Below are positions 12,301-15,300 of a stretch of 64,000 nt of DNA, in pieces; within the stretch, counting starts at the first letter, position 1, and each line of letters opens with the position of its first letter. The notes beneath the pieces were generated by a model. The model was not told where the DNA came from and made no database searches. It saw nothing but the letters and a program-made list of their open reading frames with translations. A program made the position numbers and the translations under genes. The stretch is from Ascidiella aspersa (lineage: Eukaryota), in contig OZ004609.1 in assembly GCA_963924565.1 (NCBI GenBank), forward strand, positions 9,238,001-9,302,000, given 5' to 3'.

Positions 12301-15300
12301 ATGCTTGTCTGCGCAACTACAACAACGAATTTACTAAACTCACCACATGTGGCAAAGTCAAAATCTTTTCGTAAACCAGTAAATGGTAAATCTCTCTTTT
12401 GCTAAGCATTTGTTCTGATATTTAAGATGCTGAATCAGAAAAAAAACATCCAAAAAAATTGAAGTGTGTCCTTTGGTCAGGAATAGTGGTAGTTGGTGGA
12501 TATCTGCCCGATTGTTTGGTGGAAATTTTAGTTGAATATTTACCCTGTTTTCACAAATTTTTGCTCTTTGGAGTTGGGACTACTGCAATCTTATTTAAGT
12601 AAACAAAAAATATCAATCTGCAGAGCAATTAGGTAAGCATAAATCAGTGCTGCGCTGTAATCTTATACACCTCTGGCCCAGATTCTGGCCTGATAGATAG
12701 TAGTTAACAATTTTTTAAAACCCTAGTTCTTTGTGAAAGCCATTTTTTAAATCGCTGTGTTTGTATATAGTAAAAACACCAAAAAAAGTGGTAATAAGCT
12801 TGTTAACTGGGGGCAATCAATGTAAAATATACTATAAATATTCATAAATTTGTAGCAGTTTTGGTGTACAATTTACAATAATAACTAAGTTGCACGGTAT
12901 TGATCAATAATAAAAAAAAAAACATAAAAAGACAGCCTATTCTAAATTACTTGAAATGCCTCAAGTAACTAACCTACTTGATAGTTCATTATATGATGAT
13001 AAATATATGCAACTTCATGATTAAACCAATATTAACTGAAATACTCACTGGTGTTGTCCTGACAAACTGGTCCTTTGCAGCATCGAAAGCCCTTGAAAAA
13101 AGTGGGATCTGGTACGCAGAACTTCGTTGCAGAGCAGTAGTGCTTCTCTGTCTGGCAAATGTTGCTAACAAAAGCGGTAGTTGCTAAAAAAAAACAAAGA
13201 AGGTTTTCAGTTAAACCACAAAAGGGGATTTTTGTGCTCATTTTTGCAAGAGGCTATTCCTGACAATTTAAATTGGGAATTTTTATGAGTGTTTAAGTTT
13301 GCAAAGAAAACTAAAAACATGTTGGCAAGCGTTCTACAAAACAATTTTAAAATTATATAATATATGTTACATAAAAAGGCAATATATAGAAATTAGAGAT
13401 CGACCAATATCACTTTTTCAGACTGATAGCAATTTTTATGTTTTTGCCTACCAATACCCGATACCGATTTCTTATATACCTAGATATGCAAAACAGTATA
13501 GACTTTCTTGTCTCAGTCAAAATCAGTCACTATAGGTTATAGTTTATAAAAGAAAAATATATTTCGCCAATCACGGCATCATCAGTCTCTAAAAAACAAA
13601 TACAAAATAATGTAAACACTTAAACCATGGTGGTAGAAATTAAAAATCATAGGAAAATAATCATAGAACCAAGAGCAACAAACTACGCGACCAGGTTAAA
13701 AATGTATAAGATAAAAGTTATAGGTATAGGGCTATAGAAAACCGGACCAACCTGCTACCCAAGTCTTGGGAAAAACAACAACAAGCTGTGTTCGTAAAGC
13801 GAAAAGAAAAAAAGGGTGGCAAGAGGTGATGATTTTGCCATCAAACCAACGCAGAGTTATGGATTTCGATCTTCTCTTAATTCAACAACAGAGGAAAATT
13901 ACAAGGAACCTAAAGCAACTCTACCAAACTTGGGTAGCAGGTTGGTCCGGTTTTCTATAGCCCTATACCTATAACTTTTATCTTATACATTTTTAACCTG
14001 GTCGCATAGTTTGTTGCTCTTGGTTTTATGATTATTTTCCTATGATTTTTAATTTTTAATTTCTACCACCATGGTTTAAGTGTTTACATTATTTTGTATT
14101 CGTTTTTTTAGAGACTGATGATGCCGTGATTGGCGAAATATATTTCTCTTTTATAAACTAGAACCTATAGTGACTGATTTTGACTGAGACAAGAAAGTCT
14201 ATACTGTTGTGCAACCATTCGAAGTCATTGTCGTCATAAACGTGCATTAGGACGAGGAGATATCTTCATTTTTACATATTAAGTTTGCACATTCCTGGAT
14301 ATGGTAATAAATTAAATTCCAAATGGCATTTCAGTTGTTTATCTAGCCTTCCTATAATTATTTAACCCTTATTTTGCATATTAACACTGCATGATGCTGA
14401 ACTAATTTTCTTTGGCAAAAAATAAGAAATTTATTAGTTTTTTAGGAAAAGTTAAAAATATTGCTAGTAGCGAAATATCGGTTTATCCCTAATAGAAATT
14501 ATATCATTTTAGCTATATAATGAATGTAAAATTACTACAGGTCGTTTGTAATACAAAAGTTTTTATTTCAAAGTTACAATGTTAAAGGTTTATATAGCAA
14601 TGGTGTGATGATATATTTATAAAGTTAACATCTAGCACTTTTTATTTCCAAATGTTAGCAATGTACATTTTAATAATCACAAACTGAATAAACATTATGT
14701 TGTTCATAGTTACACAAATGAGATTTACACATTCAAAGACTGTCATAAAATTATATAAATTAACAGAAAATAATGCAAACATACTCAAAGGTACAGTTGA
14801 AGATTCAGTTGTTTGATTTTGTTGAACGATCTGACCTAGAGAGACAAATTTCAGTGAAATAAAAGTTTAAGTTACAACAATTGGAAACAAATAATGGTAA
14901 CAGTTTTTATGTTTGTTATCAAGGAAGATTTTTTTAATTGAGAGTAATAACATTTAAACTGTGAAATGAGAAAGGTTTACAGAGATTACCAGTAGATTTT
15001 AAACAATGCTGGATTTATTTGCTTACATTAATAGCAATAAGTAAGCCAAGTCGTGATCGAAATACGTGTTTATCTTGCTTTGCGTTTAATTTACAAGGTG
15101 GGCTAAGTGTAAGCACATGTTTACTTTGCATCCTCAGCACCCTGTTATACAAGATGTAAAACCATATTGGCAAGTGATAAGATTTGACTTGAAACCTTCA
15201 ATGCTGCAATGTTTAATACATGTCCTAATTTGTAGCCACTGAGTCAGTAAATACAACTATTTTATCTCATTTTATAAACATTTCAAAGTATACATAAGAA

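Follow-up and report, generated by a model that had tools for sequence, protein, structure and literature searches.

A head-to-head Penelope-like element insertion with opposed minimal hammerheads in a predicted phosphatase intron of Ascidiella aspersa

Results

Long inverted arms lie in a predicted intron of a receptor phosphatase gene

The window analysed is a 64,000-nt stretch of the Ascidiella aspersa genome. On its minus strand, splice signals and matching phase predict that a receptor protein-tyrosine phosphatase (PTP) gene has a 1601-nt GT-AG intron at 13184..14784, and this intron holds the insertion described here. The flanking exons (51 nt, 14785-14835; 135 nt, 13049-13183) have canonical splice signals and agree in phase, and exons downstream on the same strand encode Y_phosphatase (Pfam E 1.8e-13, 6.9e-10, and 1.4e-8) and Sushi (E 2.9e-7) domains. 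From one stranded RNA run of the same species, about 6% of which was read, 111 reads were placed; both flanking exons were covered, with first mates on the plus strand only, which in usual libraries means minus-strand RNA. Four reads span a splice joint between the 135-nt exon and the Sushi exon. Exon phase, Pfam domains, and stranded RNA agree with the proposal of an earlier note on this DNA that a minus-strand PTP pre-mRNA carries one sense ribozyme together with its antisense copy.

The inverted arms, at 13487-13769 and 13924-14213, are 94.8% identical across 291 alignment columns; aligned globally, they differ by six substitutions and three indels. Elsewhere in the window, 18149-25098 and 25098-32047 form a 6950-bp tandem duplication of 99.99% identity, either very recent or an assembly artefact, and two related small MITE-like elements with terminal inverted repeats of ∼25-30 bp and internal hairpins are located at 15798-15988 and 16432-16638.

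Each arm contains a minimal hammerhead

A full minimal type I hammerhead is located in each arm, at 14110..14149 on the plus strand and at 13590-13551 on the minus strand, as the earlier note had reported, and in both a palindromic hexamer (AUAUAU) replaces stem III. Each consists of CUGAUGA, one unpaired U, a 3-bp stem II, GAAA, U17, and a 5-bp stem I, and thus contains the core pattern CUGANGA ... GAAA ... UH along with stems I and II and the palindrome. The plus copy has the family-consensus form and is antisense to the PTP pre-mRNA. The minus copy, which is sense, carries one change, at 13554, that turns a stem I G-C pair into a G-U wobble. A cut had been predicted 3' of 14144; this position is valid for the plus copy, but that copy is antisense to the PTP transcript, and in the pre-mRNA the predicted cut falls between 13556 and 13555. 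The motif was checked and confirmed by hand, whereas an Rfam scan of 12500-15500 matched no hammerhead model at E<=10. The genome contains 98 exact matches to a 32-nt stretch of the ribozyme and none to its reversed control, which places the motif beyond chance. Two further minimal-hammerhead-like motifs of a different family, at 33005-33042 and 35354-35389 on the plus strand, are single copies with a 4-bp stem II and a palindromic AACGTT after the core.

The arms belong to a Penelope-like element family

Searching the genome, with the best 40 of 505 candidates scored, yielded 80 matches. The copies have a common 3' end and a variable 5' reach, extending up to ∼1190 nt before the ribozyme. In the longest copy (L019/L031) a 551-aa open frame encodes a reverse transcriptase (RT), a C-x2-C-x2-C linker, and, C-terminally, a GIY-YIG domain, and this frame stops ∼360 nt before an identical ribozyme; the Pfam matches in L031 (RVT_1, E 8.9e-5; GIY-YIG, E 0.0024) are both below curated cut-offs. 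The presence of an RT and GIY-YIG frame ahead of the same ribozyme bears out the earlier assignment of the arms to inverted pseudo-LTRs of a Penelope-like element (PLE). The frame is known from this longer copy and is absent from the insertion itself. Its CxxCxxC motif lies ∼40 residues before the GIY motif. A CX2-5CxxC zinc-finger linker before GIY-YIG defines the Neptune and Nematis clades (Craig et al., 2021, PMC8557442), and the linker, judged by its residues, points to these two clades without separating them.

Other features of the family are those of PLEs. The hammerhead lies within the pseudo-LTR, close to the 3' end, and copies display 5' truncation, an inverted 5' copy, and a tail at one end. 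At three loci (L035, L036, and L039) the tail runs into the 5' ORF region and then into RT-matching sequence, as expected of overlapping pseudo-LTRs. A 237-residue RT stretch finds 122 matches genome-wide, demonstrating that PLEs are abundant there.

Two observations concern other PLE-related sequences. At G000:C2:30629642-30637517, PLE RT matches occur three times at ∼3.4-kb spacing, with open frames of 748 aa, in a head-to-tail array of a more distant family. Within the window, a 350-aa open frame without RT (5333-6382, plus strand) is nested antisense in the PTP gene. Over the final 140 residues it is 42% identical to the zinc-finger linker plus GIY-YIG of the present PLE family (E 4e-35), and the genome holds a single copy of its N-terminal part. 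The frame is a candidate domesticated PLE endonuclease, and it may outrank the foldback in interest.

One insertion accounts for the whole composite

The insertion is flanked by a 10-bp target-site duplication with one mismatch (13479..13488 and 14294..14303); in DNA sequencing run X2, A13482G and T14293A turn this duplication into a perfect 11-mer. Four parts lie between the two copies. The leftmost (13489..13829, minus strand) is an inverted, 5'-truncated 3' fragment of the PLE with 3' UTR and hammerhead but no tail; the family match extends to 13829. It is followed on the plus strand by a fragment of the PLE 5' ORF region (13830..13930) and by the 3' UTR or pseudo-LTR (13924..14210), which is 89-90% identical to the sequence behind the RT and GIY-YIG frame of L019/L031. 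A tail of ∼80 nt (14211..∼14292, plus strand) is present at the right end only and recurs at seven other loci (L009, L010, L017, L020, L021, L027, and L029). The 5' ORF piece abuts the 3' UTR where a large internal stretch is deleted, and the junction has short microhomology at ∼13924-13930.

The surrounding sequence (∼13380-13488 and 14294-14450) is an older dispersed repeat that hosts the PLE insertion, with copies of 72-87% identity among the best 40 of 164 candidates scored. In several of 14 other copies (e.g., L071 and L076) the flanks adjoin and the duplicated motif occurs once, marking empty sites. Because the duplication flanks the whole composite and empty copies of the host repeat exist, 13489-14292 is the product of a single insertion event. 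The earlier note was correct that the inverted arms are real, but its span of 13492..14208 was too short, ending before the tail and the target-site duplication. A reading of the foldback as a DNA element in its own right is refuted by the link to the RT and GIY-YIG frame, and the one-sided tail speaks against it. The unique inversion junction is present in both DNA runs (X1, 13771-13900; X2, 13800-13930), which shows the insertion to be tolerated at the least and perhaps common.

The spacer between the arms matches eight other loci. At four of these (L035, L036, L039, and L040) the tail is followed, ∼90-120 nt on, by the shared stretch and then by sequence matching RT, which identifies the spacer as 5' ORF region. 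Captured host DNA was considered as its source and ruled out by these matches at other PLE loci. The spacer junction was likewise rejected as the mark of an amplified mini-element, since it is shared by 0/8 of the other spacer matches. Three inverted PLE insertions found using the spacer as query (L034, L038, and L041) also hold a piece of 5' ORF between their arms, and the deletion junction differs from one to the next; within the first 600 nt tested, the piece is present in 0/12 inverted loci found independently of the spacer. One of the three, L041 (G000:C4:21972239-21975309), belongs to a sister family and has 572-bp arms of 98% identity. The 5'-ORF piece in the spacer is the sole unusual detail of the insertion.

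The inverted layout recurs with one polarity

Among the 98 exact core matches, 18 form nine inverted pairs within 3 kb, 54-1336 nt apart. All nine are ordered minus-then-plus, with 5' ends inward, and none is plus-then-minus (3'-to-3'); same-strand pairs within 3 kb number one among the 98. A full or near-full tail is located at one end in 13 of 16 inverted loci (this insertion included), a partial tail in one, and tails at both ends in none. Flanking duplications of at least 10 bp with at most one mismatch accompany 11 of the 16, although AT-rich flanks may slightly lengthen them; with the boundaries used, a clear duplication was not found at the other five (L062, L034, L038, L041, and L058). 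Arm lengths and break points are unlike at every inverted locus, and most copies of the family are solo arms. The hammerhead appears twice in such insertions because it lies ∼60 nt from the 3' end of the element, so that any arm longer than ∼100 nt includes one. At least eight other two-ribozyme foldbacks of the same family are present in the genome; there is thus nothing special about this locus.

Sister families were sought with a related pattern that included neither stem I pairing nor the palindrome, which gave 477 exact matches against 0 for the control; at least 10 inverted pairs of the same polarity are present among the first 100 of these matches listed. From 34 rows, four duplicates arising from overlapping loci were removed. 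Of the resulting 30 distinct sites, 24 keep all five stem I pairs and 25 keep the palindrome, and stem I varies in step on both sides, with three 5-bp versions including that of the present family. Rare changes were also counted in 33 arm segments of the family itself. The core, which comprises only 13 sites, had 8/429 changed cells, as compared with 12/891 in the rest of the ribozyme, 71/5488 upstream, and 15/1870 downstream, in copies picked by similarity. The core is therefore kept across sister families, but among inserted copies it is conserved no better than its flanks, so that the conservation anticipated in the earlier note holds at the first level only. We conclude that selection acts on the source element and does not spare the core in inserted copies.

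Predicted folds bury the sense ribozyme in the intron hairpin

In the predicted fold of the intron, stems I and II of the sense ribozyme have probability 0.0 and pairing with the other arm has probability 1.0. The hairpin is worth ∼-499 kcal/mol, and a fold constrained to keep the ribozyme stems is 61.8 kcal/mol less favourable; truncated nascent folds give the same outcome as the full intron. Folded as solo arms, the left arm forms stem I with a probability of ∼0.05 and the right arm with >0.9. The palindrome alone contributes -0.8 kcal/mol. RNAcofold returned an intermolecular stem I instead of a dimeric hammerhead, a structure it cannot represent. Since the two ribozymes are on opposite strands, they are not each other's dimer partner in one transcript.

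Within the 6% of the RNA run that was read, no reads fall on 13838-14038 and unique intron bins have a depth of at most 1; no pile-up of read starts or ends was seen at this low depth, including at the predicted cut. Arm reads are found on both strands, and 80% of the placed reads continue into other loci. RNA differences over the arms were considered as possible editing and ruled out, because they recur in DNA contigs and because so many of the reads run into other loci.

Discussion

Taken together, the insertion is best read, with a probability of roughly 90%, as a head-to-head, internally deleted PLE insertion of a known kind, whose ribozyme is likely buried and removed with the intron and which is most likely neutral. 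Reverse transcription would start at the tail and copy the ribozyme and 3' UTR; it would then jump to the 5' ORF, or would have used an already deleted template. At the staggered cut, a second 3'-end copy would be joined to the other strand, facing the opposite way. During transcription of the PTP gene the antisense arm is made first and would capture the emerging sense ribozyme. We infer that the insertion is neutral, and it is likely inert within the PTP intron.

The earlier note had further suggested that the hairpin silences self-cleavage, acts as a folding switch, or serves as a Dicer or ADAR substrate. Silencing finds agreement in that the hairpin is predicted to bury the ribozyme, but there is little to silence, because single minimal hammerheads did not cleave in the in vitro assays described by Cervera and De la Pena (2014, PMC4209133). 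Such silencing is thus a prediction of the folding model, and probably redundant. A switch gating ribozyme cleavage of the PTP pre-mRNA, for which the one sense ribozyme with an intact core speaks, is unlikely, and we give it hardly any weight. Besides the penalty of ∼62 kcal/mol and the prior synthesis of the antisense arm, stem I is weakened in exactly the sense copy, which has no dimer partner in cis. Dimers of minimal hammerheads are themselves weak (Cervera and De la Pena, 2014), the anole PLE ribozyme is described as cutting only with its protein (PMC11167929), and the shallow RNA reads display no accumulation of ends. The switch is left unsupported, as is a regulatory role in general, given a layout found at many unrelated loci and a core that is not spared.

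The same insertion could instead have given rise to a 280-bp hairpin that is now a small-RNA source or ADAR substrate, silencing the PLE family or tuning PTP. The predicted duplex is near-perfect and very stable, the host gene yields minus-strand RNA, and Dicer and ADAR act on long dsRNA in general. Set against this are the empty spacer and sparse intron reads, at a depth too shallow to speak against editing or dicing as such, the recurrence of the arm differences in DNA contigs, and the existence of the other foldbacks of this kind; we regard this as improbable. A class II foldback or MITE, moved as a unit by a transposase acting on terminal inverted repeats, would also have long inverted arms and a target-site duplication. 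Such elements have symmetric terminal inverted repeats with fixed ends shared among copies; here one end alone has the tail, the arms derive from a retroelement 3' UTR truncated 5' to varying extents, solo arms make up most of the copies, and none of the eight other spacer matches shares the spacer junction. With the RT and GIY-YIG link refuting it as well, this origin is very improbable indeed. A bolder extension of the insertion reading, to which we would give only slender odds, is that head-to-head PLEs muzzle themselves: arm pairing would enclose the ribozyme in read-through RNA, the insertions would be tolerated in introns in either orientation, hairpin small RNAs would act against their own family, and the spacer would be the trace of a template jump over long range within a looped PLE RNA.

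As a neutral PLE insertion, the locus matters little: it is ordinary mobile DNA. The family nevertheless offers a tidy natural set for studying how insertions are finished, with its 10-14 bp duplications, two fixed 3' ends, and variable inversion points. Were intronic foldbacks found to feed small-RNA silencing, or to outnumber solo sense copies in introns, the mechanics of PLE insertion would be tied to host control. Among the literature matches listed, no title concerned a PLE hammerhead silenced by an antisense copy in a host intron, which is a weak negative.

The layout has been in print since 2014, and the insertion adds a further truncated copy to a known class of retroelement. Cervera and De la Pena (2014, PMC4209133) describe minimal hammerheads with an unpaired base after position 9 and a palindromic stem III, including dual ones on opposite strands 100-700 bp apart, and report low cleavage for dimers as against none in vitro for the single form; dimer cleavage is also attributed to Luense et al. 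(2017) in a review (PMC6765202). Relative to the metazoan PLE hammerheads of that 2014 study, stem II is short here, at 3 bp (4 with a U-G pair) versus 7-8 bp in Schistosoma. Position 17 is U in this family and A in its sister families in the same genome.

Close counterparts include the Neptune and Nematis elements described by Craig et al. (2021, PMC8557442), which share the RT, CxxCxxC linker, and GIY-YIG arrangement and heavy 5' truncation, and in which an inverted 5'-truncated copy at the 5' end likewise produces inverted repeats with a tail at one end. The present family differs from that description in its tail length (∼80 nt versus 30-40), in its readable 10-14 bp duplications, and in the internal jump from 5' ORF to 3' UTR. 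Two 3' ends downstream of the ribozyme, with and without the tail, resemble those of the Poseidon element PAc of Anolis, where they correspond to two sites at which reverse transcription starts (Frangieh et al., 2024, PMC11167929); PAc belongs to the Penelope/Poseidon clade, whose members have no zinc finger in the linker, whereas the PLE here has the linker. Non-LTR retrozymes (bioRxiv 10.64898/2026.07.22.740005) are also short non-coding PLE-derived sequences with type I hammerheads. As described there, they are head-to-tail tandems with ribozymes on the same strand; the insertion has neither tandem direct repeats nor two or more same-strand hammerheads, and its two ribozymes lie on opposite strands.
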